A DNA stretch of 64,000 bases from assembly GCA_963786955.1 (NCBI GenBank), contig CAWBAT010000005.1, positions 650,860 to 714,859 of the forward strand, in the 5' to 3' direction. Every line of letters starts with the position of its first letter. Positions within the stretch are counted from its first letter, which is position 1. This stretch comes from an uncultured Acidimicrobiia bacterium. GTDB taxonomy: Bacteria; Acidobacteriota; Terriglobia; Versatilivoradales; Versatilivoraceae. Of the stretch, positions 20,495 to 49,800 are shown one piece after another. Both the position numbers and the translations under genes were made by a program. A model generated the notes under the pieces. That model did not search any database. It was not told where the DNA came from and worked only from the letters and a program-made list of their open reading frames with translations.

Positions 20495-20499
20495 AGCCC

Positions 20500-24083: not shown

Positions 24084-24097
24084 TAATTCGTGCGTTA

Positions 24098-24996
24098 TGA
24101 AACGTTACCTGGCTATCGTGAACCCTGCCGCCGGAGGAGGACGCTGCGGCAAGCTGGCATCCGAGACACTCGGGACAAATACGTGCGGGCGGGGTGGCGG
24201 TTGAAGTAGCTGGGACCCAACGCGCCGGAGATGCGACCGCCTTGGCAAGGGAAGGCTACGAACGGGGCTTCCGTCACTTCCTTGCCGTGGGAGGAGACGG
24301 GACAAGCTTCGAGATCGTGAACGGGTTGTTCCCGCGCGAGAACCAGACGGACAGGGTCGCGTTGGGATTTCTCCCCTTGGGGACCGGAAATTCCTTTCTC
24401 CGCGACTTCGCCGAAGCGGGTTTACCACACGCTATAGAGGCCATAATCAAGCAAAAAATAGACCGTGCGATGTCCTTTGTCTCAAACACGGGGGAGGCCA
24501 ATTGCATTACATCAATCTTGTGAGCTTCGGATTCACGGCTGAGGCAGGCACTTTGACAAACAGCCGGTTCAAGCCGTTGGGGGAGGTTGGCTACTTATTG
24601 GCCACTTTAATCTGCTGGATGAAACTCCATTACCCTACCTTTCCACTGCGCGTGGATGATGCCTCGGAGATTGATCACCGGCCTTGCACCTATTTAACCT
24701 TTTCAAATAGCCGCTATACCGGGGGGAAATTCATGATTGCTCCCTTCGCAAACACGGCAGACGGGTTGATTGAGCTGACACGAGTCGGAACCTTAAAGCG
24801 ATTAGATTTTGCTCGGACTTTTCCCAAAATATTTTCCGGAACTCACATGAGTCATCCGCTGATCTCACATGTGGGCGCCCACCGGGTCGATTTCCAAATT
24901 TCGCAGCCGATCGATGTCATGATTGACGGTGAAGTGGTGGCTTGCTTACCGGAGTCTATTGTCGTCTTGCCGCAAGCTCTCGATGTGATGGTATGA
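24098..24996 (+). CDS. diacylglycerol-kinase catalytic-domain lipid kinase (YegS/DagK-like); frame break near 24180
   Basis: [15 protein letters not shown]… then …[20 protein letters not shown]…[12 protein letters not shown]… (DAGK_cat) and a C-terminal beta-sandwich domain in ORF 24502-24996. Confidence 0.65.
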
Positions 24997-25790: not shown

Positions 25791-26211
25791 GACCGCTCAA
25801 GAGGGTTGGAATCGTTCTTCGAGCGGTAATTCACTGGTCACAGTTCTTCTCTCCTCTAATCCGCATGTAGATTCAATTCACTCCGGCACTATCGTATTAG
25901 TCCCACGCGGCCTCCTTGTGATGCAGGCGTCCCACCTGCAGCTCGCGATTGGACATTTCGGGAGAGGATAGGGCGCGACCGCTGGGGCGGCGCGCCGCGG
26001 ACGGCCTATGAGTTCAGCCCGCGGCCAGGAGGTTCTGTCGGCGCGCGGTCACTGTTGTGCTCCTCAGTTGTGGGTCGCGAATCTATCGGTCTCTTCACTT
26101 CGCCTGCTCAAAGTCTGTCTACTGCATAGTCTCGCCCACAATACGGTCATCCGCGTGAGACAGTCAGGTGCATTGAAAATGCCGTCGTCGATCTTTGGCT
26201 CCACTCACCTG

Positions 26212-27402
26212 TCAGAAAAGAATCTTGATCACCCGCGTGACCAACTCCTCAAGCGAAAAGACCGTCAGAGCCAACGGCAGAAGAGGCGCGGCGGTCACGG
26301 CGGCGAGTCTTGCGATGTCCTTAAGTCCGAAGGGCACGAGGCGCATCTCTTCAACAATCGAATAACTGTTTCCGAGATCGGCCAGCGACTGAATGTCGCC
26401 AGTGCCCAGAAGTTCATCGCCTTGTGCCGCGTTCCCCCGAACCCACTTGTCCTCAAATCCCTGGACGTAGCGGTTAGCGAGCAGTCCGTATGCGTCCAAT
26501 CCCCTCTGTTTCGCCCGCGCGAGCTGCGGCGTAAACATGACGAGTGGGCCGAGAAGGAACAGAACGAAGAAACCCACCAAGCTCACGGCTTCCATCTTGA
26601 AGGACAGCAAGCTCTCACCCTCGTACAGGATCCGACTGGCGATCATACCCGCCAGCAACAGGCCTTGGGCGAAAAGGATCGGTCCGAAGGCGTAGGTGCT
26701 CTTACCCAGGAAGGCTAGTCCGCCGGCTCGGTCCGGGTGGGTGGAGATGAGGCACAAGTTCAGCCTCGAGACCTGCCACAGGAACCGAAACCAGATAAGG
26801 AGCCGCAGATACCAGCGGAGCAAGATGAACTGAAAAATTGGAATACTGACGAAGGCATACCAGTACCCGGCAGGCGTGAGATGCAAATGGGTGCCTTGCG
26901 GCATCGCATACCAGGTTGCTGCACCGATGGCAATCTGGCTCCGCCAGAGCCATTGCCCGACCGTCCAGACTAGAATCACCAGCGCCACTTCCATGGGGGC
27001 CGAGTTGCGCACACGCTCGGCCGAGTGAATGGCGGCGTGGAATTTCGGCAGATCTTCGGAGACGACAATGTCCCGCTCCACGAACCGTGACACCACGGGG
27101 CGGACGCGCAAATGGACGATCAGCTCGGCGGCAATCAGCACCGGTAACGCGACCAGGAATCGAACCTGCACCTCGATGTCGTGTAAAAATGGGACCTTGA
27201 TGGCTCCGCCCAGCGCATGCCCGCCAATCAGCGACAATACCAATAGCGGGAGCCACGCGAAAAGCGAGATAAACAGAATTCGGCGGTGGAGCAACTCCAG
27301 TGCGTCTCCGGACACATGTGTCCGCCGGAACAGTTGATACAGAGGACCGCCCAAGCATAGCGAAAAGTCAGGCGATTCTTGGAGAGGCGTGGTTTTGTTC
27401 AT
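26212..27402 (-). CDS. polytopic membrane protein of unknown function (first gene of the high-GC block)
   Basis: 396 aa with about 8 predicted TM helices and no recognisable catalytic motif. GC is about 62%, against about 50% for flanking DNA. Confidence 0.5.
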   Translation of the reverse strand: MNKTTPLQESPDFSLCLGGPLYQLFRRTHVSGDALELLHRRILFISLFAWLPLLVLSLIGGHALGGAIKVPFLHDIEVQVRFLVALPVLIAAELIVHLRVRPVVSRFVERDIVVSEDLPKFHAAIHSAERVRNSAPMEVALVILVWTVGQWLWRSQIAIGAATWYAMPQGTHLHLTPAGYWYAFVSIPIFQFILLRWYLRLLIWFRFLWQVSRLNLCLISTHPDRAGGLAFLGKSTYAFGPILFAQGLLLAGMIASRILYEGESLLSFKMEAVSLVGFFVLFLLGPLVMFTPQLARAKQRGLDAYGLLANRYVQGFEDKWVRGNAAQGDELLGTGDIQSLADLGNSYSIVEEMRLVPFGLKDIARLAAVTAAPLLPLALTVFSLEELVTRVIKILF

Positions 27403-27474
27403 GGTGCAGGATCCTTAGAACTCAAGCCCCGGCCGCAGCAGGGTGCCTTGCGCGGTGGTCTTCCCAGATAAAAA

Positions 27475-27702
27475 TCATGTCATTCTTTGCTTGCTGAGCG
27501 GTACTGGTGTCCCAACACCCCACTGGCGGGCGGCCAACTTCAGCGCCAGTCCAGAGACCAGCGCGGCGGCGAGGTTGGTTTTCGTTTTCATGGTCGTGTC
27601 CTTTCTTTGTTTATCGGTTGCCGCGCCCGCCGCCTTGCGACGGCGGGCGCAGTTCTTATTACACTTACTGTGCGGCGGCGATGGTGGCTTTGCCTTCTTC
27701 AA
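27475..27702 (-). CDS. signal-peptide-like mini-ORF (MKTKT…) sharing a leader/RBS context with the sulfatase genes
   Basis: 75 aa beginning [21 protein letters not shown]. The upstream context gaaaggacacgaccATGaaaac parallels the sulfatase starts at 30076 and 33654. Could be a remnant N-terminus or a real small secreted peptide. Confidence 0.25.
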
Positions 27703-30076
27703 GTTTCTGCTGGTCCTGCGCCGTCAATGGCACGGGTTTCAAGTAAACCGTCACCTTCTTGAGCTCGCCGGTGAACTTGAACGGGACGTGGTAATCCTCG
27801 GTGACGGGTGTGCCGGTGTCCTCGCCGCAATCGAGCGTCTCGTCGAGCGAGAGGCGGAAGGCCAGTGTACGTTCGATGCGGCCGGTGGCCACGGTCTTGC
27901 CGTCCACCTGGATCGTGCCGACGCCGCCTTTGCCGAGGCCACCGCCATCGTATTTGAAGTCGTAAACGATGGTGTGCGCGCCTGGCGCAAGCTTGTCCTT
28001 ACCGGTGACAAGGTAGTGGGCGACACCGGCGAGGTTGTAGCAGAAGACCGGCTTGCCTTTGAGCAGGTAAAGTCCCCACCCGGAGAAACGTCCACCATGC
28101 GTGAGCAACATGCCTTCCGCGCCGCCCTTGGGGATGTCCACCTCGGCTTTGATCTGCCAGGACTTGTTCTTCGTGTCCGGCGCTGCGCCCTCGGGGATGC
28201 GCACGAGGCCGGGGTAGTAGGTGAACTCGTCCCGCCCGCGCGTCAGGCTGGGCCGGATGTTCACATCGAAGCGGTTAATCCTGCTGTTCTCGATCGGCAG
28301 CACATTGTATTTCTCGGCTTCCTTCCAGAAGAGGTCCTGCAGCTCCTTGAGCTTGGCGGGCTCTTTGGTCGCGAGGTTGTTCGCTTCGGAGAAATCCTCG
28401 CTGACGTTGTAGAGTTCCCACTTGTAGTCAAGGACGGAAGGCAATCGCCCTTCGATCTCGGCCGCCGAGTCCCACGGCGCAACCCCCGGCGTCGTGCAGG
28501 CGACCCAGCCATCGTGATAGATGCCCTGGTTGCCAAACATCTCGAAATACTGCGTCGTGTGTTTCGACGGCGCTTTTGCGTCATCGAACGTATAAACGAG
28601 GCTCGCGCCTTCAATGGGTTTCTGCGCCACACCGTTGATGCTCGTCGGCGCGGGCACACCGGCGGCTTCGAGCAACGTGGGCATGATGTCAATCACCGAG
28701 CAGAACTGCGAACGGATGCCGCCCACGTCCTTGATGCGCGCCGGCCAGGAGATGACCATGCCGTTGCGCGTGCCGCCGAAGTGCGAGGCGATCTGCTTGC
28801 ACCATTGGAACGGCGTGTCCATCGCGTGCGCCCAACCGACCGGGTAGTGGTTGAAGGTGTTCGGCCCGCCGAGTTCGTTCATGCGGCGCAGGACTTCCTT
28901 CATGTCTTCGGGGATGCCGTTGAACACCGTCATCTCGTTGAGCAGGCCTTGCATACCGCCTTCGCCGCTCGCGCCGTTATCGCCCTGGATGTAGATGACG
29001 AGCGTGTTGTCCAGTTCACCCTGCGCTTCGATGGTATCGAGGATGCGGCCCATCTCGGTGTCGGCGTGTGAGAGCGCCGCGGCATAGACTTCCATCATGT
29101 GGGCAAAAACTTTCTTCTGGTCGGCGTTCAAGCTGTCCCACGCAGGAATGCCAGCGGAACGCTCCGTCAACTTCGTATTCGCCGGGATGATGCCCGCCGC
29201 CTTCTGCCGCGCGAAAGTTTCCTCCCGCACCTTGTCCCAGCCTTGATCGAACTTTCCCTTGAACTTCGCGATCCAATCCGGCGGTGCGTGATGCGGCGCA
29301 TGGGCCGTGCCCGTCGCGTAGTAGGCGAGGAAGGGCTTGCCCGGCGCGGTCGCGTGCTGCATCCGAATCCAGTCAATGCAATGGTCGGCCATGTCATTGT
29401 CGAAGAAGTAATTCTTCGCGTCATGCGGCGGCTCGATGGGTTTCGTGCCCTCGAAGAGCGCCGGATTCCACTGACTCGTGTCGCCGCCGATGAAGCCGTA
29501 GAAGTATTCAAACCCCAGCCCGGTGGGCCACAGGTCGAACGGCCCCGCCTGGCTGGTCATCCAGTCGGGGACGTTGTGGTTCTTGCCATACCAGGACGTG
29601 TTGTAGCCGTTCTGCTTCAGAATCTCGGCGAACGTCCCGTCGCTCTTCGACATCAGGGAGTTGTAGCCGGGGAAGCCAGTGGCCAGTTCCATGATGACGC
29701 CGGTGTTGGCGCTGTGATGATTGCGTCCGCTGAGCAGTGCGGCGCGCGTGGGCGAGCAAAGCGCCGTGGTGTGGAATTGATTGTAGCGAAGTCCGTTTTT
29801 GGCCAGGCGATCCATCGTCGGCGTGGGAATCGGCCCGCCAAACGTGGATGACGCCCCGAAGCCCACATCATCGGTGAGGATGACGAGAATGTTCGGCGCG
29901 CCTTTCGGTGCTGCGACACCCTTGGGGAAATCCGGCGTGGACTCCTTGGGCGTGCGGCCAATCTTGCCGCCGAAGGGTTGTTCGGGTCGGGGCAGGACTT
30001 GTTGCGCCCTTGCCGGTAGCGCATAGGCTGTGGCCAGCACAAGGATCAGAACGGCGAGCATGGTTTTGGTTTTCAT
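27665..30076 (-). CDS. arylsulfatase-family sulfatase (Cys-type), secreted
   Basis: 803 aa with signal peptide [24 protein letters not shown]. Sulfatase signature ILTDDVGFG…[15 protein letters not shown] (C-x-P-x-R), followed by a C-terminal beta-sandwich extension. Confidence 0.9.
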
Positions 30077-30248
30077 GGTTGTTTTCCTTTCATTGGTTGC
30101 TTGGTTGACCCGCGGCAGCGTCAGCGAGCACGGCGGCGAGGAATTGGGGAGTTTTCATTTTCATAGTTTTGTTCTTTCTTTGGTTGATTGGTTCGCTGGT
30201 TAACGCGCGAGCCGTCCACTCGGACAGCCCGCGTGTTTCACAATCGAA

Positions 30249-31883
30249 TCATTTCAGTTTCAGTTGCTGGAGCTTCTTCGCCGCCGTACCGAACTGACCA
30301 AGCTGATAGACCGCTGCGCCCGCCGGTGAAAAGGTGAACGCCACAAACGGTTCGGCCAGCATTCCATCCAAGTATTCTTTGCTGGCGACGCCAGTGCTGA
30401 CATGCGGATTGAAATTCTCGCCGGTGCCCTTCGGCACAAACACGGAAACGTATTTGATCAGGAACGGATCAATGACCGGATCTTCGGGCGTAGTGACGAA
30501 CGCGGACGAGTCGCCGGTTTCCACCGTGAACGGAGCAACGGCGGCGATGATGTCCGCCTGGAGTTTAAGTAATTCCGGGGTCGGCTTCGCGCAGATGCCC
30601 GCAAGGCCGATGGGACCGCTTGCGACGTAGTAGTATTTGAAGGCTTCCAGCTTCATCGCGGTCACGTTGGCTTTGGCGATGACTCTTCCAGCAGCGTCAT
30701 AGACCTTGTCGAGGTCGGCGGTGCGGACGTAGCGCTGGATCAGCGTGATGTGCGGACGGTGCGTCGCATCCAGTGAAAAGCCTTTCGGGTAAACCTTCAG
30801 CAGGCGGGCGTTGTTCACTTCGCTTTCCTTGAGCATCGTGGCGTCCGGCTCCAGCAAGATGTCAATGGCCGTGCCAGCGGCTTCCTCGGCAGGGAAGACT
30901 GATTTCCAATCGTTCTTCATATTCACGACCACCCAGCCGTTCGCAGCGGCGGCCTTCAACGAGGCGTTGTCCGGCTCGGCGTAAGCGAACTCGCGCGCGG
31001 CATCGTCATGGTTGACCATCAGTTGGAGCGTCGCGCCGGGGCGGCTCTGACAGTAGCGCAGCATGGCGATGTCGCCGCCGGAGAAGACGTTCCCGGCCGA
31101 CAGTATCGGCTTGCGACCGATGTGCTGATTGATGCCAACGGGCTTGCCCTCTTTGTCATCGATGAAATTCAGCTCCGGCAGACGCAAGAGCACCGGCTGG
31201 CCGTCGCGGATTTCAAACCTCGTTTTGATACTGCTGCCGACGACCTGCTCGGGCGGGATCTCATAGACCTTTTCCGTCCACGGGCGCATGAACTCGATGC
31301 CACCGCCGGAGACGATGTAGTTCTTGAAACCGTTGGCGCGCAGGTAGGCGAGCACTTCGAGCATGGGCTGATAGACCATCTCAGTGTAAGGCCGCCCGGT
31401 CGTCGGATGCTTCGCCGTACCGATCCAATCCTTCACCATCTTCTCAAACTCCACGGTGGTCATGCCTGCATGCGTGGCCATGATGATTTCGAGCAAGGCG
31501 TGTTCTCCGCCCGCCATCGAGCCTTTCACGTCACCCTTGAGCAACGAGGCGAACGGTTCCGTCGTCTTCCATTCCGGGTGCTGCGGCGCGAGCGCCTTCA
31601 CGCCGTCAAGCGCGAAGTATAATTGGACGGGCACCGGCTTCTCACACCAGAGCGTGCCGTCGTTGTCGAACGTGGCGATGCGTTCCGGTACCGGCACGAA
31701 ATCCGGCGAACCGGGTTTGGTGACCTTGGCGACAAATGCGACGATGGATTTCTTGGCCGCGCCGTCGTTCCACGAGGGAAGCGGGTCGCTTTGCGCTCGT
31801 GCTGTACCAACTGCGCCGCCGACAAGTAACGTCGCGAAGGCAACAGCAAGTATGAAGCTGAAGGCAGCTTTGTTCGTTCTCAT
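30249..31883 (-). CDS. secreted HAD-superfamily hydrolase domain protein (phosphatase-like), C-terminal domain unknown
   Basis: 544 aa with signal peptide. HAD motif I FDNDGTLW, …SGGGIEFMRPW… and NVFSGGDI…. The C-terminal roughly 250 aa are unrecognised. Confidence 0.5.
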   Translation of the reverse strand: MRTNKAAFSFILAVAFATLLVGGAVGTARAQSDPLPSWNDGAAKKSIVAFVAKVTKPGSPDFVPVPERIATFDNDGTLWCEKPVPVQLYFALDGVKALAPQHPEWKTTEPFASLLKGDVKGSMAGGEHALLEIIMATHAGMTTVEFEKMVKDWIGTAKHPTTGRPYTEMVYQPMLEVLAYLRANGFKNYIVSGGGIEFMRPWTEKVYEIPPEQVVGSSIKTRFEIRDGQPVLLRLPELNFIDDKEGKPVGINQHIGRKPILSAGNVFSGGDIAMLRYCQSRPGATLQLMVNHDDAAREFAYAEPDNASLKAAAANGWVVVNMKNDWKSVFPAEEAAGTAIDILLEPDATMLKESEVNNARLLKVYPKGFSLDATHRPHITLIQRYVRTADLDKVYDAAGRVIAKANVTAMKLEAFKYYYVASGPIGLAGICAKPTPELLKLQADIIAAVAPFTVETGDSSAFVTTPEDPVIDPFLIKYVSVFVPKGTGENFNPHVSTGVASKEYLDGMLAEPFVAFTFSPAGAAVYQLGQFGTAAKKLQQLKLK

Positions 31884-32019
31884 GTTGCTTCCTCCTGATC
31901 ATATGAACCGCAGGGCATAGTCCTTGCTGCGCCGTATGCCTTACCGTCACCCACTACCATGAGGTGGTTTTTTCGCCGCGGGCAGCCCTTGCGGACCGCC
32001 CGCCATGTATGCGTCCGTG

Positions 32020-33654
32020 CTACTTCGAACCGCCGCCTTCCTTCAGCTGCTGAAATACTTCATCCATGTTGAAGCTGGCCGCCTTCTGCCGCTGCGGGTA
32101 GTCCTTGAATGTCATCAGAAACTGGCCCACATACGCCTGCGCAGGGACCAACAAGAAGGCGTGATCCAGCAGCCAGTCGTAGTAGGTGTTCGACGTGATG
32201 TCCGCCCGTTCATACGGATCCGTCCGGAGATTGAAGATCTTCGGGACCCGCAAGCTGGTGAACGGGTTCGCCCAGATCAACATCGTTCCAGGGGCCCGCT
32301 GCTCCATGAATGCAAGCTTCCAATTGTCGTAGCGCAACCCGGTCAATTGCTGGTCGTCGTTGATGTACAGGAACGATTCCCGCGGGCTCTTCGCGGCTTG
32401 CCCGGTCAGGTAAGGGACGAGGTTGTCGCCGTCAAGGTGAACCTTGTACGTCCTGTCTCCAACCTTGTAGCCCTTGAGCAGCTCGTCCTTAATCTGCGTG
32501 TCGCCGGCCATGGCCACAAAGGTCGGCAGCCAATCGAGGTGGGCGACGATGTCGTTGGACACACTGCCTGGCTTGATCTTGCCCGGCCATCGGACCATGG
32601 CGGGCACCCGGTAGGCCCCTTCCCAGTTCGAGTTCTTCTCGCTGCGAAACGGCGTCATGGCTCCGTCTGGCCAGCTGTTCATGTGCGGACCGTTGTCGGT
32701 TGAGTACATGACGAACGTATTGTCCGCAATGCCCAGGTCATCCAGCACCTTGAGGACCGTGCCGACATTCTTGTCGTGGTCGATCATGGTGTCGTGGTAC
32801 GGGCTCTGCCAGCGCCCCGACTGGCCGATGCTCTCCGGCTTGGTGTGGGTGCGAAAGTGCATGTGGGAGAAGTTCACCCAAACAAAAGCCGGCTTGCCGG
32901 CCTTGTTCTGCCGCTGGATGAAGTCCACGGCCCGGTTGGCAACGTCATCGTCAATCGTTTCCATCCGCTTCTTGGTCAAGGGACCAGTGTCAGTGCACAC
33001 CTGCTTGCCGACCTTGCCGAAGCGCGGGTCGACGGTCGTGTCGTCCTTGTCCGAGGCCTTGCAGTCCAGCACGCCGCGCGGGCCAAACTTGGCATGGAAT
33101 GCCGGGTCTTTCGGATAGTCCGGCAGTTCCGGCTCTTCCTCGGCGTTGAGGTGATACAGGTTGCCGTAGAACTCGTCAAAGCCGTGGACGGTAGGCAGAT
33201 ACTCGTTGCGGTCGCCCAGGTGATTCTTGCCGAACTGGCCAGTGGCATAGCCTTGTGCCTTCAACAGCTCGGCAATCGTCGGGTCTTCCTTTTGCAACCC
33301 TACCGTAGCGCCCGGCAGGCCGACCTTCGTCAGACCAGTGCGCAAGCCGGACTGGCCGGTGATGAACGAAGCGCGACCGGCGGTGCAACTCTGCTCGGCA
33401 TAGTAGTCGGTGAAGATCATGCCTTCTTTCGCAACACGGTCAATGTTAGGTGTGTGAAAGCCCATCAGTCCCATCGAGTAGGCACTGATATCAGATTGGC
33501 CGATGTCATCACCCCAGATGATGAGGATGTTGGGTTTTTTGTCAGCGGCCTGCGCCGAAGCGAGGACGCCCCATGTCAGCCCGAAGGCCAGTAAGAGGTT
33601 CTTGAAGATAGTTTGTTTCATGGATGTTTCCTTTCGTTTTGGATTGGCCTTCAA
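32020..33654 (-). CDS. sulfatase (Cys-type, C-T-A-G-R), secreted
   Basis: 544 aa with signal peptide. ILIIWGDDIGQSDISAY…CTAGRASFITGQ sulfatase signature, plus …GKNHLGD…. Confidence 0.9.
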   Translation of the reverse strand: MKANPKRKETSMKQTIFKNLLLAFGLTWGVLASAQAADKKPNILIIWGDDIGQSDISAYSMGLMGFHTPNIDRVAKEGMIFTDYYAEQSCTAGRASFITGQSGLRTGLTKVGLPGATVGLQKEDPTIAELLKAQGYATGQFGKNHLGDRNEYLPTVHGFDEFYGNLYHLNAEEEPELPDYPKDPAFHAKFGPRGVLDCKASDKDDTTVDPRFGKVGKQVCTDTGPLTKKRMETIDDDVANRAVDFIQRQNKAGKPAFVWVNFSHMHFRTHTKPESIGQSGRWQSPYHDTMIDHDKNVGTVLKVLDDLGIADNTFVMYSTDNGPHMNSWPDGAMTPFRSEKNSNWEGAYRVPAMVRWPGKIKPGSVSNDIVAHLDWLPTFVAMAGDTQIKDELLKGYKVGDRTYKVHLDGDNLVPYLTGQAAKSPRESFLYINDDQQLTGLRYDNWKLAFMEQRAPGTMLIWANPFTSLRVPKIFNLRTDPYERADITSNTYYDWLLDHAFLLVPAQAYVGQFLMTFKDYPQRQKAASFNMDEVFQQLKEGGGSK

Positions 33655-34135
33655 CCGGAATTTCCATTTTGAGTTTTCTGACGGGAACTAGTGGACGATA
33701 TCAGAAGGAATGGAACAACTGTGAGTACACTGAAGCACATACTCAGCGTGGGGAAGACAAATTTAATCATAGCAGATCAACCCTTAGAATCACTTACATC
33801 TATCAATCCACGGTGCGAAGGGCTAGCTGAGGTAGACTTTCGTTTCAGGTCGAAGCCCAAACTTTCGTCCAACTCGCGCACGAGAACCAAGCCACCGTCG
33901 GAGGTGATTTGTGATCCCTGAATACCGATCTTCAGGAAAGCTATTGAAGGAGAGCTGAAAGGGTTGGTTTTGTTTCTCAGCCATTAGTTGTGGGCCTCCA
34001 GAGCGTGTTCTTTGCGTCGCAATCCGCAAAAATTAAAGACGTTCGAAGGCCCCATAAGGTTGTCAATAGCTACTTCACAATGAAAATCTGGGCTTATGCA
34101 TCACCGCTGAGGCAGGCAGTTGCGGGAAAAACGCC

Positions 34136-35872: not shown

Positions 35873-35877
35873 TGGGT

Positions 35878-35975
35878 TGGCGGAGGCGAATGGGAATCGA
35901 ACCCACCTATCGCAACAAAGTTACGACACGCTGGTTTTGAAGACCAGGAGAGTCACCAGGCCCTCTGCACCTCCG
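35878..35975 (-). tRNA. selC: tRNA-Sec candidate (anticodon UCA), class II with a long variable arm
   Basis: Reverse-complement reads CGGAGGUG-C-AGAGGGCCUGGUGACUCUC-CUGGU-CUUCAAA-ACCAG-C-GUG-UCGUAAC-UUU-GUUGCGA-UA-GGUGGG-UUCGAUU-CCCAUU-CGCCUCCG-CCA. Anticodon loop CUUCAAA (U33, UCA, A37) is identical to E. coli selC. It has an 8-bp-capable acceptor, 5-bp T-stem and TTCGATT T-loop, 7-bp variable stem, and encoded CCA. About 97 nt. Confidence 0.65.
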
Positions 35976-36068
35976 GGTTGACTATAGCATATCGAAAGGC
36001 AACGCCGGGATCATCTTGTGGTCTTCACTTAGAGGTTGTTTTTGTCCTGAATCCTGCCTACCCTAAGA

Positions 36069-36704
36069 ATGTTTACTCTGGGGAGGAGGATTATGGTAGA
36101 GGAGCTTGTATTAGCGTTCCCGCGTAAAATATTGGATGAGATCGGGGATTTCCAGGGGATTGAATTCAATGTCGCACGCTACATTCCCGCCATCCTTGAC
36201 AAGACTAACTGCCGTTTCCTACCTCGCGCCGCGGCGGAAAGTGACCCGAGCTACAAACAAATTATTTCCTACGTGTTGATTCGAAAGGGAAATGCCTGGT
36301 TGCATTATGTAAGGGGTAAAGCTTCAGGGGAAAAGCGCTTGGTCGCTAAGAGCTCGATCGGGATTGGAGGCCATATCAATCCACATGACCAGAGCCTCTT
36401 TGATAGCGGGTTGGATTTTTATGAAACAGCCGTCCAGCGGGAACTCCGGGAAGAACTGCGAATGGATGGAGTTTTTAAAACCCAGGTCGTTGCCCTGCTC
36501 AATGACGATTCCAGTGCGGTGGGGCAGGTTCATTTGGGGATAGTCCATCTTTGCACATTAACCGATGAAATCGTGTCAAAAGGCGAAGCCAGCCTCACGG
36601 GATTAGCATTTTTGACTCAGGAAGAGTTATTGAAACGTAAGGAACAAATGGAGACGTGGTCTCAGTTTTGCTTGGATCACCTGGAGAAAATTGGGGGAGC
36701 CTGA
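36069..36704 (+). CDS. NUDIX hydrolase
   Basis: Nudix box GGHINPHDQSLFDSGLDFYETAVQRELREELRMDG (Gx5Ex7REUxEExGU). 211 aa; the start may be the internal MVEELV at 36093. Confidence 0.7.
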   Translation: MFTLGRRIMVEELVLAFPRKILDEIGDFQGIEFNVARYIPAILDKTNCRFLPRAAAESDPSYKQIISYVLIRKGNAWLHYVRGKASGEKRLVAKSSIGIGGHINPHDQSLFDSGLDFYETAVQRELREELRMDGVFKTQVVALLNDDSSAVGQVHLGIVHLCTLTDEIVSKGEASLTGLAFLTQEELLKRKEQMETWSQFCLDHLEKIGGA

Positions 36705-36886: not shown

Positions 36887-37660
36887 ATGCACTTTGAAAA
36901 CATCATCATCCGCCGCGAAAGTGCTGTCGCCATCCTCCAACTGAACCGGCCCAAAGTCCTTAATGCCCTGAATGCCTTGATGATGGCTGAACTGTGCGAA
37001 GCTTTAGAAAGCCTCGACCGGGATGAGACCGTTCGCTGCCTGATTCTCACCGGCGATGAGAAGTCCTTTGCTGCAGGAGCCGATATCCGGGAATTAGTGG
37101 GTGCCGGCTCAATCGAGATCATGCAAAAAAACACGGTCGCCCTATGGACAAGGGTTCAAGCCATTGGCAAACCCCTCATTGCCGCTGTTAGCGGGTATGC
37201 GTTGGGGGGGGGATGCGAATTGGCGCTTGCTTGTGACATGATCGTTGCTTCGGAAGACGCTCGATTTGGGCAGCCGGAAATTAACATCGGGGTTATTCCT
37301 GGGGCAGGCGGAACCCAGAGGTTAGCGAGAATTCTGGGGAAACATAAGGCCATGGAATTGGTCCTGACGGGACGGACCCTCACAGCTCGAGAGGCCCTAC
37401 AAATGGGGTTGGTAAACAGAGTAGTTTCCGATGGATCCTGCCTGGAAGAGGCCAGGAAACTGGCGATCGAGATCAGTGAAAAGTCACCATTAGCCGTCAA
37501 GCTGGCCAAGGAAGCGATTCTCAAAGCTCAAGAATGCAGCTTGAGAGAAGGTATCGAATTTGAACGAAAATGTTTTTTCCTTTTGTTCAGCTCGGAGGAT
37601 CAGAAGGAGGGAATGAATGCTTTTTTGGAAAAAAGAAAGCCAGATTTCAAGGGAAGATGA
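36887..37660 (+). CDS. enoyl-CoA hydratase/isomerase (crotonase)
   Basis: 257 aa with ILQLNRPKVLNALN…LILTGDEKSFAAGADIRE…GGGCELALACDMIVASEDARFGQPEINIGVIPGAGGTQRL, the canonical crotonase fold motifs. Confidence 0.9.
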   Translation: MHFENIIIRRESAVAILQLNRPKVLNALNALMMAELCEALESLDRDETVRCLILTGDEKSFAAGADIRELVGAGSIEIMQKNTVALWTRVQAIGKPLIAAVSGYALGGGCELALACDMIVASEDARFGQPEINIGVIPGAGGTQRLARILGKHKAMELVLTGRTLTAREALQMGLVNRVVSDGSCLEEARKLAIEISEKSPLAVKLAKEAILKAQECSLREGIEFERKCFFLLFSSEDQKEGMNAFLEKRKPDFKGR

Positions 37661-38659
37661 ATGGATTGCCAAATGCCAAATGCCGATTGTCGATTGTCAA
37701 TCACCCATCTGACTGCTTATTCCAAATGCCTCTTGATTGTGATGCTTTGTTCCTTCATTTCCGGGTGTGGTCATCCCGAGAAGCAAGCCCCTGCCGAGAC
37801 AATTGCAAAGATCCGTTTTTCTGCATTTCAAGACGGCGAGATCTGGATTCGCCATTCCGTTATTCAGCTTCGCTTCGATCCAGACATGTATTGCAAAATC
37901 TTCCTGAATGAAAAAGGTGGATTACAATCCTTCGTGGACATTCCCCCCGACAAGGAGAAGGCTAGGCCGGCACAATTCGTCTCGGTCAATGGAAAAGAAT
38001 TAAGAGATTTTCATATTGACTATGCCAATATTGGAGTCTCGGACATTGGAACTCAGTATGGGATTGGGAGGCGTTTGCACTTGACTGGGCTTGCAAGAAC
38101 GACGGACGGGATCATTATCAGAAAGGAGTTGAAGATTGACCTCTACAATGACTTCCCCGAATTGGCTTTCGTATCCTGCCTGTTTCGCAATATCGACAAA
38201 TCAAGGCCTGTTCAGCTCACCACAATTGTTGACAATTTTTTCCGTCTCAACGCAAATCGCGTCAATTCTAGCCTCCGACCTTATGATTTCATTTTTTTTC
38301 ATGGAGGAATGGAAAGGCAAAGCAGCGGCTCAAAACTGATTGAAAATTTTACGCAAACCGTCCTCTATGAATTCAAACGGGAGCCCCATGCAGACTCCTT
38401 CCCGTTTTTCGATTTCTGGAATGAGCAAATGGGGATGGCGGTTGGGTCTCTCACGGCGGAACTGACTGGGGGTGAGCTTCGAGTCATGATCGATTCAGAT
38501 AAACGTGTCGAAGCAGGCGTTTACTACGAAACAGCCCGAACTCTCGGCCCGGAAGAAGGCATTTCGACTCCGAAGTGCATTTGGATGGTTCATCGTGGAG
38601 ACTTCTTATCTCCTTTCAAGAGATACCAAGAACTGGCACTTCGAGCTGAGCGAAAATAA
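37661..38659 (+). CDS. lipoprotein of unknown function
   Basis: 332 aa. Lipobox-like LCSFISGC after a hydrophobic stretch. No other recognised motif. Confidence 0.45.
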   Translation: MDCQMPNADCRLSITHLTAYSKCLLIVMLCSFISGCGHPEKQAPAETIAKIRFSAFQDGEIWIRHSVIQLRFDPDMYCKIFLNEKGGLQSFVDIPPDKEKARPAQFVSVNGKELRDFHIDYANIGVSDIGTQYGIGRRLHLTGLARTTDGIIIRKELKIDLYNDFPELAFVSCLFRNIDKSRPVQLTTIVDNFFRLNANRVNSSLRPYDFIFFHGGMERQSSGSKLIENFTQTVLYEFKREPHADSFPFFDFWNEQMGMAVGSLTAELTGGELRVMIDSDKRVEAGVYYETARTLGPEEGISTPKCIWMVHRGDFLSPFKRYQELALRAERK

Positions 38660-42690: not shown

Positions 42691-43044
42691 ATGCAAGATT
42701 ATTTCCCGTTAATTCTGATGTTCGTGGTGACAGGCTTACTCGTTGGAGTCATCCTTTTCTTAGCCAGCCTCCTCGGACCGAAGAAACCGAGCCTGATGAA
42801 GAATTCTCCTTTTGAGTGTGGCTATCAGCCATTTCAGTTGCCCACCGACCGTTTCTTCATTCGCTTCTACCTCATTGCGATGCTTTTCATCTTGTTTGAC
42901 ATTGAAGTGATCTTTCTCTATCCCTGGGCGGTCGTTTTCAAGTCCCTTGGATTGAGAGGCTTTATGGGGATTGTAGTCTTTATTCTGGTTCTCGGGGCTG
43001 GTTACATTTACGCATGGAAGAAGGGTGCGTTCCAATGGGAGTAG
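42691..43044 (+). CDS. nuoA: NADH-quinone oxidoreductase subunit A
   Basis: 117 aa with 3 TM helices and …KNSPFECGYQPF… (NuoA/ND3 signature). Confidence 0.85.
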   Translation: MQDYFPLILMFVVTGLLVGVILFLASLLGPKKPSLMKNSPFECGYQPFQLPTDRFFIRFYLIAMLFILFDIEVIFLYPWAVVFKSLGLRGFMGIVVFILVLGAGYIYAWKKGAFQWE

Positions 43045-43078
43045 CTTCACGTCTGATGGAGGCTGCTTTCACCGTTTT

Positions 43079-44107
43079 ATGTCGATTCAAGAGATAAAAC
43101 GAAGGCTACATTCACTTAGCGGTGTTGTAAAGGATGAGGCTCAGATCCTCATTCTGATGCATGACAACCCAGATCCTGACTCCCTAGCCAGTGCTTTTGG
43201 GCTTCAATATCTACTCAACAGTCTCGCTGGGAAGCCTTCGTTAATTGGTTATTCGGGAATTGTAGGGCGGGCTGAGAATCGGGCAATGATCAAGCATCTG
43301 GACATCAGGCTTTGTCCGTTATCAAGAATTCCCATCAAAGAATATCCCTGTATCGCCATGGTGGACACCCAACCTTCGACTGGAAACAATTCGCTGCCGA
43401 CCAGACTCTTGCCTAAGATTGTCTTCGACCATCATCCGTTCCGGTCGGCCAGCCGGAGAGTCGCCTATCGAGAAATTAAGACGAAGTACAACGTCACTGC
43501 TTCGATCATCACCGAGTATTTGATCGCCTCGAAGCTTGAGTTCGATTTCAAACTCGCAACGGCACTTTTTTATGCCATCAAAAGTGAGACCGAGGGGCTC
43601 TCCAGAGAAGTCGGCAAGATCGAAGCCCGCTTGAGACATTATCTCTATCCCCATGTAGATCAGAAGCTCTTAGCGAACATCGAGAATGCCCGCGTGAGCA
43701 AAGAGTACTTCCAGACGATACACTCCGCACTGGAAAACAGTATGATTTACGGGGACGCCGTAGTCGCTAAGATTGAAAATGTTCAAAATCCGCACATCGT
43801 TGCCGAAGTTGCCGATTTTTTGATGAGGCTAGAAAAAATCAAATGGGGCTTTTGTTTCGGGACCTACAACGGAGATGTTCTGATTTCGGCACGGACTATC
43901 GAGCGCAGTAACGACGCGGGGAGCCTGATGCGAGAAGCCTTTGGGGATTTGGGGGCTGCCGGGGGACATGAAATGATGGCAGGGGCCAAGATTAGCCTCA
44001 AAACTACGTCTCTCCAGGGTAAGAGATCCTTCGTACGTCAATTAATTTTCAAAGCGCTGGAGCTGACGGGAAATGACCCGAAAGATGGGGAAAGGCTGGT
44101 CGAATAA
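43079..44107 (+). CDS. DHH/DHHA1 family phosphoesterase (NrnA-like nanoRNase/pAp phosphatase)
   Basis: Motifs ILMHDNPDPDSLASA (DxD), …VFDHHPF (DHH), and GAAGGHEMMAGAKI (the GGGH of DHHA1). Sits where nuoB/nuoC would be expected. Confidence 0.7.
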   Translation: MSIQEIKRRLHSLSGVVKDEAQILILMHDNPDPDSLASAFGLQYLLNSLAGKPSLIGYSGIVGRAENRAMIKHLDIRLCPLSRIPIKEYPCIAMVDTQPSTGNNSLPTRLLPKIVFDHHPFRSASRRVAYREIKTKYNVTASIITEYLIASKLEFDFKLATALFYAIKSETEGLSREVGKIEARLRHYLYPHVDQKLLANIENARVSKEYFQTIHSALENSMIYGDAVVAKIENVQNPHIVAEVADFLMRLEKIKWGFCFGTYNGDVLISARTIERSNDAGSLMREAFGDLGAAGGHEMMAGAKISLKTTSLQGKRSFVRQLIFKALELTGNDPKDGERLVE

Positions 44108-44116
44108 TATAGCCCT

Positions 44117-45471
44117 ATGACAACTCCATCCGTCGATGTTCAGCAATCGAGCTGACAACCCATAGTACCCTGCTGAATATCGGTCCTTCTCATCCGGCCA
44201 TGCATGGTGTGATTCGAATCATCACCCAGCTGGAAGGTGAGACGATTGTTAAGGCTGATATTGAAATTGGTTATCTACACCGTGGGTTTGAAAAAAGTTG
44301 TGAACAGGGAGGTTACAACCACCCTATCCCTTATACCGACCGGCTGAACTATGTTTCCCCGCTCATCAACAATTTTGGCTACTGCATGGCGGTGGAAAAG
44401 CTCATGGGAATCCAGGTCACGGAAAGATGCCAGTATATTCGGGTACTCATGAGCGAGATTTCTAGGGTTTGTGACCACCTCACTTGTATCGGGGCCTCGG
44501 CCATGGAACTCGGGGCCATGACTGTTTTCTTGTATATGATCAAGGCGCGTGAATTTCTGTGGGAGCTAGTAGAGTCTGTGACTGGTGCGCGCTTGACGAT
44601 ATCTTATGGGCGAGTCGGAGGCGTGAGCGGGGATCTCCCAGCGGACTTCGGCGCAAACGCCGCTGGCACGTTCAAGAAAGTGCGCGAAGTGCTTATCGAA
44701 GTGGACCGTTTACTCTCGCGCAACCGAATTTTCGTCGACCGCATGCAAGGCACCGGTTTAATCAAGCGGGAAGATGCCATCGCTTACAGTTTCACCGGAC
44801 CGGTAGCACGGTCTGTCGGGATTGACTATGACGTTCGACGGGATCAGCCCTACATGGTCTATGATCAACTGCAGTTTGATGTCCCCCTCGGGTCCATGGG
44901 TGACAATCTGGACCGTTACCATGTACGGATGGAGGAGATGCAACAGAGTCTACGCATCGCAGAACAAGCATTGAATAAAATGCCCAAAGGACCTGTTCAG
45001 GTGGATTCCGAAGGGAAAGTCGTTGAAGCGCATGAAATGGTGGATCGCGCAAAAATGGGCCGAACCCGAGGGATCCGAGATACTTTGGTCCAGCTATCTC
45101 CGAATCTGGAAGGGTTGGAAGGCCCCGCGTATGACGAGGTCACTGCCAAGGAAAAACGGGCCGTACTTCCTGCCAAGAGCGACACATACGGAAACATTGA
45201 AGGGCTCATGAACCATTTCATGCTGATCATGCACGGTCATGGAATCCATCCGCCAAAAGGTGAAGCTTATGCTGCGGTTGAAGCCGCCAACGGTGAGCTG
45301 GGCTTTTATGTTGTCAGTGATGGCTCCGATCGACCGTATCGGGTTCGAGTACGTCCCCCCTGCTTCACTCTGATGGCAGGCCTTCACAAAATGATTGAAG
45401 GGTCTATGATGGCGGACCTCATTCCTACTTTCGGCTCGATCAATATGATTGCCGGAGAACTGGACCGATGA
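44117..45471 (+). CDS. nuoD: NADH-quinone oxidoreductase subunit D (49-kDa subunit); frame break near the N-terminus
   Basis: …LLNIGPSHPAMHGVIRIITQLEGETIVKADIEIGYLHRGFEK…. ATG at 44117 (MTTPSVDVQQSS) is in frame 2 and the body is in frame 1 from about 44150. The table ORF is 44200-45471. Confidence 0.85.
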
Positions 45472-45643
45472 ATCTCGAAGCACATCGTTCTCGATTAGGG
45501 AATTCTTAGGCTTATTTCAGCAGGGGGAAGTTGACACAGGGTCTCCCGTTTGTCAGCCGAAGCTTGGCCGCCCTTAAGGCTTATGGTTTGATTTTAGAAG
45601 TTGAAGGCTGCGCTTAATCTTCAATTCAGAGAATCTCGGAAAC

Positions 45644-46921
45644 ATGGCAGAACTCGCACTTTTAAGAGACGTGCAGGAAAGAAATCTGATGACGGTCGAA
45701 GACTACCGTCAGGTGAATGGTTTCGAGACGCTTCGCAAATCTCTTTTTGAGATGAAACCCGAACAGGTCACCGAGGAAGTCAAGAAGTCGGGATTGAGAG
45801 GCCGCGGAGGTGCAGGTTTTCCAACTGGAATGAAATGGAGCTTTATTCCGAAAAACTTGGATAAGCCTCACTATCTGGTGATTAATGCCGACGAAAGCGA
45901 GCCTGGAACCTGCAAGGACCGCGTGATTATTGAAAAAAACCCTTTCCTGCTGATGGAAGGGATCGCTATCGCGAGCTACGCAATCGGGGCGCACACCTGT
46001 TATCTCTACATCCGGGGAGAATATTACGAACAGGCCATGATCCTCAAAAAGGCCATCGAGGATGCTTATCACTACGGTTACTTCGGAAAGAATATCATGG
46101 GTTCCGGCTTCGATCTGGATGTTTATCTCCATCGCGGTGCGGGGGCCTATATCTGTGGTGAAGAAACCGGCTTGCTGCAATCACTGGAGGGTAAGAAAGG
46201 TTGGCCCCGTTTAAAACCTCCCTTCCCTGCTACCTATGGTCTTTATGGCTGCCCTACAGTCATTAACAATGTAGAAACCATTTCCGCAGTCGTCCCCATT
46301 TTACAACGAGGAGGAGACTGGTACGCCAGCCTTGGTACTCCCAAGAATGGGGGAACGCGACTCTTTTCGGTAAGCGGTCATGTCAAGAAGCCAGGAAATT
46401 ACGAACTGCCCATGGGGACTTCGCTGCGAACCATCATTTACGATATTGCGGGGGGCATTAAAGGCGACAAGAAGTTAAAAGCGGTCATTCCTGGGGGCAG
46501 TTCAGTGCCGGTGCTGACAGCCGAAGAAATTGACGTTAAGATGGATTTCGATTCCGTGGCGGCGATTGGTTCCCTGTTGGGTTCCGGGGGAGTAATCGTC
46601 ATGGACGAAAGCACGTGTATGGTGAAAGCGCTATTGCGGATTTCGAAGTTTTATGACCATGAGTCCTGCGGACAGTGCACACCTTGCCGGGAAGGGACCG
46701 CCTGGTTGAGAAAAACCCTCCAGCGCGTCTTTGACGGGCAGGCTCAGCCTAGGGATCTGGATCAATTGATGGATGTTGCTTTTAATATGATGGGGACAAC
46801 GATCTGCGCGCTTTCAGATGCAGCCGCGATGCCGGTGCGCAGTTTTCTTCAAAAATTTCGCCAAGAATTCGAATATCACGTCCACGAAAAGCATTGTGAT
46901 GTCGCGCGGCGCAAGAGTTAA
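45644..46921 (+). CDS. nuoF: NADH-quinone oxidoreductase subunit F (51-kDa, FMN/NADH binding)
   Basis: …GLRGRGGAGFPTGMKWSF… and …ESCGQCTPCREGTAW… (4Fe-4S N3). 425 aa. Confidence 0.9.
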   Translation: MAELALLRDVQERNLMTVEDYRQVNGFETLRKSLFEMKPEQVTEEVKKSGLRGRGGAGFPTGMKWSFIPKNLDKPHYLVINADESEPGTCKDRVIIEKNPFLLMEGIAIASYAIGAHTCYLYIRGEYYEQAMILKKAIEDAYHYGYFGKNIMGSGFDLDVYLHRGAGAYICGEETGLLQSLEGKKGWPRLKPPFPATYGLYGCPTVINNVETISAVVPILQRGGDWYASLGTPKNGGTRLFSVSGHVKKPGNYELPMGTSLRTIIYDIAGGIKGDKKLKAVIPGGSSVPVLTAEEIDVKMDFDSVAAIGSLLGSGGVIVMDESTCMVKALLRISKFYDHESCGQCTPCREGTAWLRKTLQRVFDGQAQPRDLDQLMDVAFNMMGTTICALSDAAAMPVRSFLQKFRQEFEYHVHEKHCDVARRKS

Positions 46922-46961
46922 CAGCGGTCCACGGATCGCGGCAGAGTAATATCGAGTTCCT

Positions 46962-48587
46962 ATGCCAACGGTTACAATAAATCAACAGTCCATCGTTATT
47001 CCCGAAGGGACCACGATTATTCAAGCAGCCCAACAGTTGGGGATCGAGATCCCTCATTACTGTTATCACCCCGGGCTCAGCACCGCCGGTTCCTGCCGCA
47101 TGTGTCTGGTGGAAATAGAGAAAAATCCCAAGTTACAACCTGCTTGCTATACCCGAATATCGGATGGGATGGTGATTTACACCAATACCGAGAAAGTGAA
47201 GCAGATGGTGAGCGGCGTTCTGGAATTCCTGCTCATTAACCATCCGCTGGACTGTCCTGTGTGCGACCAGGCCGGTGAGTGCTTTTTGCAGGAATATTAT
47301 ATGAAGTTCGGGCTTTACGACAGCCGGATGAACGAAGACAAGATCAAACGGCATAAGGCCCAGGCGATTGGCCCGCATGTCATGCTGGACACCGAGCGGT
47401 GCATTCTATGTTCACGTTGCGTCCGCTTCGTCGAAGAGGTCTCGGATAGCCATGAGATTGGCATATTGAACCGCGGAGGTCGATCAGAAATTCGATTGCT
47501 TCCTGACAAGGCCCTGGACAATAACTATTCCGGAAATGTAGTCGATATTTGCCCGGTAGGGGCGTTGACGGATCGCAATTTCCGCTTCCAATGCAGGGTG
47601 TGGTATCTGGACAAGACCAATTCTGTCTGCAACGGTTGTAGCCGCGGCTGCAATATAACCGTGGAAGCCAATACCGAGCGGCCTCATCATGCTGAGGGCC
47701 GGCGCATTATGCGCTTAAAACCCCGCTACAACCCAGAAGTCAACCAGTGGTGGATCTGCGATATCGGTCGCTATGGTTTCGAATTCATCGACGACCCTTC
47801 ACGCCTGGCAAGTTGTTTGGAGAGGCGAGAGGGTCAGCAAGAATCGATTGAATGGCATGAAGCACTCGGGAAAGCTTCTCAGCGGTTGTCTGATGCATTG
47901 CATCATCAGGGCGACGAATCGGCGGTCGTGATTGCCTCTCCACAATTGACCAATGAAGATTTGTTCCTCATTCGAAGGTTCTTCGGGGAAGACCTGGGAC
48001 TATCGAAGATTGATTATCGCGTACCAGAGCGAAGCTTGTCGGCAGGAGATAACGTTCTCCTTCTCGCGGATCGAAACCCGAATACGCGGGGAGCAGATGC
48101 CATCTTAAAGAGCGGTGGCGGGTTTAGTTTGCACCAGTTGCTACAATCCCCAACGACCCAAAGCTTCAAACTGCTCTATCTCTTCGAACAGGATCTTGTA
48201 AAGAAGCTTGGCGAAGAAGACGCAAAGTCCTTTCTTTCTAGCTTTGAATATGTGATCTATCAGGGGACCAACGAGAATGAGACCTCTCGCCTGGCCGATT
48301 TAGTTTTACCGAGCGCTACGTATGCTGAAGTTGAGGGAACCTTTACCAATTTTGAAGGAAGAGTCCAGAAAATTAACCGAGCCGTGGCACCATGGGGAGA
48401 TTCCCTCCCCACTTGGCAGATAATGGCCAAGCTGGCAGAAACGCATGGAAAAACATACCCTTATGATTGTTCTGAAGACGTATTTGCGGAACTAGCTGAC
48501 CGAGTGCCCGAATTTGAAAATTTGAGCTATTCCAAGATGGGTGATCGAGGGACAAAAACGATCACAACCGGCCAGATGAAAGCGTAG
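46962..48587 (+). CDS. nuoG: NADH-quinone oxidoreductase subunit G, short form (541 aa)
   Basis: 2Fe-2S region CYHPGLSTAGSCRMCLVEI, HPLDCPVCDQAGEC, CILCSRCVRF and CPVGAL. Lacks the long molybdopterin-like C-terminal extension. Confidence 0.85.
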   Translation: MPTVTINQQSIVIPEGTTIIQAAQQLGIEIPHYCYHPGLSTAGSCRMCLVEIEKNPKLQPACYTRISDGMVIYTNTEKVKQMVSGVLEFLLINHPLDCPVCDQAGECFLQEYYMKFGLYDSRMNEDKIKRHKAQAIGPHVMLDTERCILCSRCVRFVEEVSDSHEIGILNRGGRSEIRLLPDKALDNNYSGNVVDICPVGALTDRNFRFQCRVWYLDKTNSVCNGCSRGCNITVEANTERPHHAEGRRIMRLKPRYNPEVNQWWICDIGRYGFEFIDDPSRLASCLERREGQQESIEWHEALGKASQRLSDALHHQGDESAVVIASPQLTNEDLFLIRRFFGEDLGLSKIDYRVPERSLSAGDNVLLLADRNPNTRGADAILKSGGGFSLHQLLQSPTTQSFKLLYLFEQDLVKKLGEEDAKSFLSSFEYVIYQGTNENETSRLADLVLPSATYAEVEGTFTNFEGRVQKINRAVAPWGDSLPTWQIMAKLAETHGKTYPYDCSEDVFAELADRVPEFENLSYSKMGDRGTKTITTGQMKA

Positions 48588-49783: not shown

Positions 49784-49800
49784 TTTCAAAGAATGGACTT

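Follow-up and report, generated by a model that had tools for sequence, protein, structure and literature searches.

A 64,000-nucleotide stretch of contig CAWBAT010000005.1 (hereafter the window) contains, at positions 35878-35974, a genuine selC gene, encoding the selenocysteine tRNA (tRNA-Sec) of a Terriglobia / Ca. Versatilivorator acidobacterium. It ends 5 nucleotides (nt) upstream of a gene of the aldehyde dehydrogenase (ALDH) family. The selC gene itself is ordinary; the non-trivial result is a tight unit of putative promoter, tRNA-Sec and ALDH that is found lineage-wide; it is akin to known tRNA-mRNA operons, from which it departs by an unusually short spacer without a ribosome-binding site. 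Taken as a whole, we consider it likely that this genuine selC shares an extended -10 promoter and a transcript with the ALDH gene, that the arrangement is ancestral, and that a nearby block of high GC content arrived independently of it.

Identity and structure of the tRNA-Sec gene

ARAGORN reported a single tRNA in the window, a 97-nt tRNA-SeC on the minus strand with the anticodon tca at tRNA position 35. The Rfam model for tRNA-Sec (RF01852) matched positions 35882-35974 over its full length with 68.7 bits (gathering score, 47; E = 6.5e-12). The first half of the molecule has the layout GGAGGUGC-AG-AGGGCC-UGGU-GACUCU-C-CUGGU-CUUCAAA-ACCAG-C-G-(variable arm), and the variable arm is followed by G-GUGGG-UUCGAUU-CCCAU-UCGCCUCC-G-CCA.

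We aligned the window copy with 17 copies from related genomes and counted pairs on a hand-written cloverleaf. Across these 18 copies, 76 of the 97 positions are invariant, and 90% of the cloverleaf cells hold standard pairs, versus 41-52% after the 3' partners have been shifted by 1-3 columns. The 7-nt anticodon loop CUUCAAA, identical to the Rfam consensus loop, is the same in every copy (18/18). The T stem has 5 bp and is paired in all copies, as are seven of the eight acceptor positions; the eighth acceptor position never forms a standard pair (0/18): the window's clade has C.U there, and the others have A.A. With eight residues between T stem and G73 and five base pairs in the T stem, the branch has the 8/5 geometry of 13 layers. 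The D stem (11-16/21-26) comprises six positions around a 4-nt loop, UGGU; five of the six pair in the window copy, the other being a C.A mismatch, and all six pair in most relatives, which have U-A at that position. Nine pairs are possible in the variable arm, three of them with compensatory changes (U-A/C-G, G-C/A-U and A-U/G-C). The discriminator G73 (tRNA position 94), by which seryl-tRNA synthetase (SerRS) recognizes tRNA-Sec, is present and is followed by an encoded CCA. A minimum-free-energy fold of the tRNA-Sec alone did not yield a cloverleaf, as is usual for such folds of lone tRNAs, and we relied on covariation instead.

The acceptor and T branch of bacterial tRNA-Sec has 13 layers of the 8/5 type, and variants and allo-tRNAs of the 7/5, 8/4 or 9/3 types have been described (PMC5330540, PMC5389517). 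The window gene shares with the E. coli-type 8/5 tRNA-Sec (RF01852) the UCA anticodon within CUUCAAA, G73, the 8 + 5 layers, the D stem of six positions with its 4-nt loop, the long variable arm and the encoded CCA. It differs in its innermost (eighth) acceptor pair, which is never standard in this lineage; by eye, this position also varies in other metagenomic tRNA-Sec genes with the same 3' end. It differs too in its setting: selC often lies beside selA or selB in other bacteria (PMC1794560; PMC5330540, S2 Fig legend), which is not the case here.

Most of what the original prediction had said about this segment is thereby confirmed: a 97-nt tRNA-Sec with anticodon UCA on the minus strand (ARAGORN and RF01852), the loop CUUCAAA (the Rfam consensus loop) and the encoded CCA (from the sequence). 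Its details needed some correction. The end coordinate 35975 was one base too long, and the variable stem, given as 7 bp, can form nine pairs. As to the proposed 8-bp-capable acceptor with a 5-bp T stem, the T stem and the eight acceptor residues hold, whereas the eighth pair is not a standard one; and the ALDH start does nearly touch the tRNA 3' end, across a gap of 5 nt.

Conservation of the tRNA-Sec-ALDH linkage

In three close relatives, whose ALDH proteins are 86%, 82% and 67% identical to that of the window (L003, L004 and L005, respectively), the tRNA-Sec gene ends exactly 5 nt before the ALDH start, and the same distance is seen in L001, which is the same species from another sample. 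A species-level scan, with one genome per GTDB species, yielded 21 loci with this ALDH subfamily. At 16 of these acidobacterial loci, with ALDH identity down to 42%, an intact tRNA-Sec gene lies directly upstream of the ALDH gene on the same strand. The spacer measures 5 nt in the window's clade and 17, 19 or 21 nt in most others, these lengths accounting for 14 of the 16 linked loci. The surrounding gene order is kept in 17 loci and consists of a 332-aa gene, a divergently oriented 203-aa gene, tRNA-Sec, ALDH and, past the ALDH gene, a convergent cluster encoding an acyltransferase, a YegS-like kinase, an acyl-AMP ligase, an acyl carrier protein (ACP) and an enoyl-CoA hydratase. The 203-aa protein has no Pfam or NCBIfam match and is conserved in 14 of the 21 species-level loci.

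As a control we used at least 120 metagenomic loci in which the final 24 nt of the tRNA-Sec gene (TTCGATTCCCAYWCGCCTCCGCCA) recur; the underlying scan had originally sought further ALDH-linked copies. Nearly all of the control loci that were tested (39/40) are tRNA-Sec genes, of varied length and GC content. This ALDH follows tRNA-Sec in none of 120 control loci. Among the 68 control loci with at least 600 nt of downstream sequence, a same-strand open reading frame (ORF) of at least 150 aa begins within 25 nt of the tRNA in only three, and all three start at a TTG inside a run of T residues; the corresponding figure for the ALDH-linked species-representative loci is 14 of 16. A run of five or more T residues occurs within 60 nt of the tRNA in 24 of the 68 controls and in none of the 16 ALDH-linked loci. 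The tRNA-Sec-ALDH arrangement goes back to the ancestor of this lineage and does not mark an island boundary.

The metagenomic tRNA-Sec genes sharing TTCGATTCCCAYWCGCCTCCGCCA (loci L029-L148) are 94-100 nt long, lie on contigs of 51-71% GC and come from many lineages; a SelB-like GTPase motif is found near eight of them.

The ALDH gene and its start codon

The ATG of the ALDH gene occupies positions 35872-35870 and is separated from the CCA of the tRNA by ACCCA. We collected about 100 homologs, nearly all 550-590 aa long and with 97-100% query coverage; those with names belong to Acidobacteria or Terriglobia. E17 and W22 do not vary in an alignment of 26 homologs, and Met1 hardly does. In the window, the ATG at 35872 is the sole ATG, GTG or TTG upstream of E17. 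Because the N-terminus is conserved from Met1 and there is no other canonical start before E17, we take this ATG as the true start. It is not preceded by a Shine-Dalgarno sequence, which the original prediction had taken as a hint of a DNA junction; however, such a sequence precedes no more than about 12 of the 29 well-defined window genes, and its absence here is therefore unremarkable.

The catalytic residues of the family, Glu E261 (in ELGG) and Cys C300 (in GQHC), are invariant in the same 26-homolog alignment. An AlphaFold model built from the alignment (pLDDT 84, pTM 0.88) shows a full-length ALDH fold that can be superposed on many solved aldehyde dehydrogenases over about 510 columns; its highest target-normalized TM-score, 0.82, is to the class 3 benzaldehyde dehydrogenase 5ucd. 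The protein thus shares the fold and the catalytic Glu and Cys with the ALDH superfamily (PF00171, 5ucd), from which it differs by two extra C-terminal helices (residues 522-569), by falling under every NCBIfam equivalog cut-off and by the distribution of its subfamily, which is found almost exclusively in Acidobacteriota.

The conserved neighbors of the ALDH gene are of a lipid type: fatty-acyl reductases, acyl-AMP ligases, ACP, an acyltransferase and a lipid kinase. On the most economical reading, which these neighbors suggest, the protein is an aldehyde dehydrogenase of the neighboring lipid pathway. A further but unlikely possibility is that its role is tied to selenium or selenoprotein physiology and not only to the lipid neighbors. 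We saw no sign of a link between the ALDH and selenium, and no selenocysteine variant among truncated ALDH homologs. The idea that the ALDH is itself a selenoprotein in relatives was rejected: every truncated homolog retains Cys162 and Cys300, and the truncations come from frameshifts or contig ends.

A putative shared promoter and transcript

Upstream of the tRNA lies a putative extended -10 element, TGCTATAGT. The box T-ATGCTATA(G/T)T, that is TGCTATA(G/T)T, does not vary among the ten loci aligned here, and its end lies 6-7 nt short of the tRNA, whereas the upstream regions are otherwise unalignable between clades. Closely similar tRNA-Sec genes in L141 and L065 have this box in front of them too. 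The extended -10 consensus is TGnTATAAT, and promoters of this kind work without a -35 box. On the downstream side, a scanner reported no terminator-like or promoter-like site between tRNA and ALDH, and the 5-nt spacer is too short for a promoter, a terminator or a Shine-Dalgarno sequence. The two genes thus lie on the same strand with no terminator between them and no room for a promoter. Given the conserved box, the lack of a terminator, the lack of room for a second promoter and the conserved linkage, we read the promoter, tRNA-Sec and ALDH as one unit, and the tRNA and ALDH are most likely made as one primary transcript.

The alternative is mere close packing: the ALDH gene would have a promoter of its own, in or upstream of the tRNA, and the adjacency would have no consequence for expression. 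On the one hand, about 60% of the window genes lack a Shine-Dalgarno sequence, which makes a bare start normal here; the whole 20-kb neighborhood is syntenic, and the adjacency could be plain inheritance; and three loci (L009, L010 and L020) carry the ALDH gene without the tRNA. On the other hand, a separate -10 element would have to sit in the acceptor/T-arm segment CGATTCCCATTCGCCTCCGCCA, where there is no TATAAT-like hexamer and where the scanner finds no promoter-like site. Moreover, with no terminator between the genes, read-through is unavoidable unless there is a stop signal that we do not recognize. We therefore regard simple packing as unlikely and favor the shared transcript.

Such a transcript would start at or beside the mature 5' end of the tRNA, from the putative extended -10 promoter, and RNase P together with 3'-end processing would release tRNA-Sec from a tRNA-ALDH precursor. 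RNA sequencing in another bacterium has shown that tRNAs with an encoded CCA are cut endonucleolytically a few nucleotides downstream and then trimmed exonucleolytically (PMC3848588). Processing of this kind would leave the ALDH mRNA with a leader of 0-5 nt in the window's clade and of 17-21 nt in most sister clades. Because the spacer is so short, the released mRNA would be leaderless or nearly so; it would be translated without a Shine-Dalgarno interaction and, in the window's clade, from a near-leaderless message.

The thrU-tyrU-glyT-thrT-tufB operon of E. coli is a unit in which tRNAs and an mRNA are co-transcribed, with a spacer before tufB of roughly a hundred nucleotides that includes a ribosome-binding site. 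The acidobacterial unit shares with it the upstream position of the tRNA on the same strand and the lack of an intervening terminator, and it is predicted to share the single promoter and the freeing of the mRNA by tRNA processing. The differences are that a lone tRNA-Sec precedes the protein gene, that the partner is an ALDH-family enzyme and not a translation factor, and that the spacer measures 5 nt here and 17-21 nt in most sister clades.

Evidence against the proposed unit and the selenocysteine function of the tRNA

Several observations weigh against the interpretation given above. Five of the 21 ALDH loci have no intact tRNA, so the ALDH can evidently be expressed without it. In two of the linked loci (L018 and L022) the spacer is about 93 nt long; both seem to have acquired some 70 nt past the former ALDH start. 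The promoter scanner reports no sigma-70 site upstream of the tRNA, and there is no -35 box. A scanner that looks for two hexamers would be silent on an extended -10 promoter without a -35 box, and the promoter is predicted from the conserved box and its likeness to the consensus; co-transcription and processing, too, we infer from the sequence. The window copy of the tRNA has three non-standard pairs: a C.A pair in the D stem, C.C as the uppermost pair of the anticodon stem and C.U as the eighth acceptor pair. Finally, the 64-kb window contains no selA, selB, selD or selenoprotein gene, and it is from the conservation of the tRNA that we argue for a role in selenocysteine insertion. 

The last of these points raise the question of a look-alike, that is, an allo-tRNA, a selC* tRNA-Cys or a relic RNA leader, that no longer inserts selenocysteine. 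Such a reading could draw on the three non-standard pairs, on the absence of SelA, SelB and SelD domains from the roughly 50 window ORFs scanned with Pfam and NCBIfam, and on the tRNA-Sec-like allo-tRNAs known from Acidobacteria (PMC5389517). However, allo-tRNAs have 8/4 or 9/3 branches and selC* has U73 (PMC5389517), whereas the window gene has 8 + 5 layers and G73. The RF01852 score is far over the tRNA-Sec threshold, the UCA anticodon and its loop do not vary in the 18 copies, compensatory changes keep the variable arm that SerRS needs, and selenoproteins are documented in Acidobacteria (PMC1794560). A look-alike is thus very unlikely. The strong conservation of the tRNA-Sec (the invariant anticodon loop and the compensatory changes in the arm recognized by SerRS), a score above the threshold and the selenoproteins of Acidobacteria lead us to regard it as probably functional, and it presumably works within a complete selenocysteine system.

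The original prediction also held that in-frame TGA codons in the window could be selenocysteine codons. A read-through screen of the window gave 17 candidates, none of them in a known selenoprotein family and none convincing. The most striking, read-through from the enoyl-CoA hydratase gene (ECH257) into the 332-aa gene, was rejected as merely a TGA followed by an ATG between two complete genes. At this place (37658-37663) the stop TGA of the enoyl-CoA hydratase gene directly abuts the in-frame ATG of the 332-aa gene of unknown family, as it does in L003 and L004; this looks like translational coupling and not a selenocysteine codon.

The high-GC block and the island reading

Past the ALDH gene, the window departs from its relatives by an 8.3-kb insertion with genes for a membrane protein, two sulfatases and a secreted HAD-like protein (Table 1). 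Its GC content is 54-61% (0.54-0.615 across 26-34 kb), versus about 50% in the host flanks. In BLASTN comparisons, the window is collinear with L003-L005 on both flanks of the insertion, the limits of collinearity being window positions 34163 and 25805; the ALDH and acyltransferase genes are 117-391 bp apart in these relatives and 8.3 kb apart in the window. Neither L003-L005 nor any of the 17 syntenic loci has the sulfatase block. Metagenomes from soil and sediment contain hundreds of homologs of the HAD-like protein with 70-82% identity, a few being named as deltaproteobacterial metagenome-assembled genomes, and the best 120 of at least 8,000 candidate homologs (all with E <= 1e-20) are 68-82% identical to it; on an unrelated contig, the sulfatase-HAD pair occurs in the same order, with 57% and 75% identity. 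The HAD-like protein (30249-31883) belongs to a very large, highly conserved family and is often paired with a sulfatase. Thus, the original prediction that the block at 26-33.7 kb is foreign was right, given its atypical GC content and its absence from all relatives examined; the block is a horizontally acquired cassette, independent of the tRNA unit.

Table 1. Coordinates of the tRNA-Sec-ALDH unit, its upstream neighbor and the adjacent insertion in the 64-kb window
Feature	Position	Strand	Details
8.3-kb insertion	25806..34135	-	between ALDH stop and convergent acyltransferase stop; outside the tRNA unit
Membrane protein of the block, 396 aa	26212-27402	-	
Sulfatase of the block, 803 aa	27665-30076	-	
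Secreted HAD-like protein of the block, 544 aa	30249-31883	-	
Second sulfatase of the block, 544 aa	32020-33654	-	
ALDH-family gene, 578 aa	34136..35872	-	Pfam PF00171 (Aldedh), E = 3.5e-38
tRNA-ALDH spacer ACCCA, 5 nt	35873..35877	-	from sequence; same 5-nt spacing in L001, L003-L007
tRNA-Sec gene (selC)	35878..35974	-	UCA, G73, encoded CCA, 8/5-type branch with non-standard eighth pair
Putative extended -10 element TGCTATAGT	35981..35989	-	hexamer ends 6 nt upstream of tRNA position 1
203-aa conserved protein, divergent upstream neighbor of the tRNA	36093..36704	+	gene calls in L001, L003-5

The original prediction went further and read the 3' end of the tRNA-Sec gene as the attachment site of an island, with the ALDH gene and the high-GC block as its cargo and the contact between tRNA and ALDH as the junction. 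Some observations speak for this: the block has an atypical composition and is missing from every relative, and there are signs from related lineages that tRNA-Sec is used as an integration site (see below). The contact itself is not a junction, as all three close relatives and 16 of the 21 species-level loci have it too, on the same strand; relatives without the block have the same spacer, and what lies immediately 3' of the tRNA is not foreign DNA but the ALDH gene, the conserved 3' neighbor in 19 related loci. The block begins only past the ALDH stop, 1.7 kb from the tRNA. A direct repeat of the tRNA 3' end, which had been suggested to mark the far boundary, is absent as well: the 3'-terminal 26-mer and 17-mer match only the tRNA itself across the 64 kb, with up to three mismatches allowed. 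Viral contigs scanned for the tRNA 3' end as an attP site gave no matches. No ORF at 25.8-36 kb, including the 3' side of the tRNA, has an integrase, recombinase or transposase match in Pfam or NCBIfam, and the 8.3-kb insert is not bounded by terminal direct or inverted repeats, only short chance-level matches being found. Compared with the islands at selC of E. coli (PMC6174562, PMC2704930), the locus shares a block of atypical GC content within 1.7 kb of selC that is absent from relatives, and integrase-mediated use of tRNA-Sec in one related lineage (L141). It differs in having neither an integrase nor a direct repeat of the tRNA 3' end in the window, in the resident ALDH gene that separates block and tRNA, and in the place of insertion, between two convergent gene ends. 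We consider an island attached at this tRNA extremely unlikely and retain the ancestral tRNA-Sec-ALDH unit with an independent insertion beside it.

Integration at tRNA-Sec in related lineages

In the metagenomic locus L141, a tRNA-Sec gene identical to that of the window at 90 of 97 positions is followed, after an AT-rich spacer of 83 nt, by a gene on the same strand for a 375-aa tyrosine integrase (PF00589, Phage_integrase, E = 1.8e-16; stretch 2257-3563 in stored coordinates, minus strand). The tRNA-Sec gene thus serves as an integration site in this related lineage. Two of the ALDH loci without an intact tRNA carry fragments of its 3' end: in L008, the 24 nt that run from the T loop to the CCA are present as an exact copy at 873-896, 7 nt before the ALDH start, with a group II intron fragment further upstream (3-74), and L011 has the last 22 nt of tRNA-Sec at the very start of the contig (3-24), before the ALDH gene. 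Such fragments represent either att-like remnants or deletions. In L010, a possible decayed remnant in the corresponding position scored no better than the best shuffle, and L009 and L020, which have a different gene context, show no tRNA remnant before the ALDH gene. The tRNA-less ALDH locus L020 also contains an Acido-Lenti-1 small RNA (RF01687, 45.3 bits) at 11949-11994. The expectation that selC attracts integrative elements thus holds for relatives (L141, L008 and L011) and fails for the window locus.

Other features of the window

At 15800-24500 we found at least seven frameshifts relative to the intact orthologs in L003, affecting an acyl-AMP ligase (in three frames), a YegS-like kinase (in three frames), an enoyl-CoA hydratase and an NAD-binding reductase. 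This suggests insertion-deletion errors of a long-read assembly or a decaying lipid cluster; the tRNA and ALDH genes are untouched by these frameshifts. A multiheme c-type cytochrome cluster at 1336-11356, which includes a 604-aa MtrC/MtrF-like protein and NapC/NirT-, NrfB- and c554-like proteins, suggests extracellular or anaerobic electron transfer in this acidobacterium. The NADH dehydrogenase (nuo) run at 42691-50292 has a gene for a DHH/DHHA1 phosphoesterase between nuoA and nuoD, an order that is the same in L003-L005. Two ORFs with RHS repeats (515 aa and 221 aa), followed by unannotated ORFs, at 51001-54420 may represent a fragmented polymorphic-toxin locus.

Implications

A tRNA gene that abuts a start codon near a block of atypical GC content can mimic an island junction when a single genome is considered, and it is the relatives that show the ancestral state. 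In sister lineages, integration into tRNA-Sec would separate the ALDH gene from the intact tRNA and the presumed promoter. The tRNA marks this acidobacterial lineage as a probable user of selenocysteine, and TGA-containing selenoprotein genes are worth seeking elsewhere in the genome.

A bolder proposal, to which we give only an outside chance, is that tRNA-Sec is an obligatory 5' module of the ALDH mRNA, in a unit punctuated by the tRNA since the common ancestor of these Acidobacteriota. If this is true, cutting out the tRNA would give rise to an ALDH message with no leader or almost none, and ALDH output would be set by the selC promoter and the tRNA-processing enzymes. The conserved unit of putative promoter, tRNA, 5-nt spacer and ORF offers a testable natural case of an mRNA whose 5' end probably comes from tRNA processing, and as such it is modestly interesting for the study of RNA processing and leaderless translation in bacteria.

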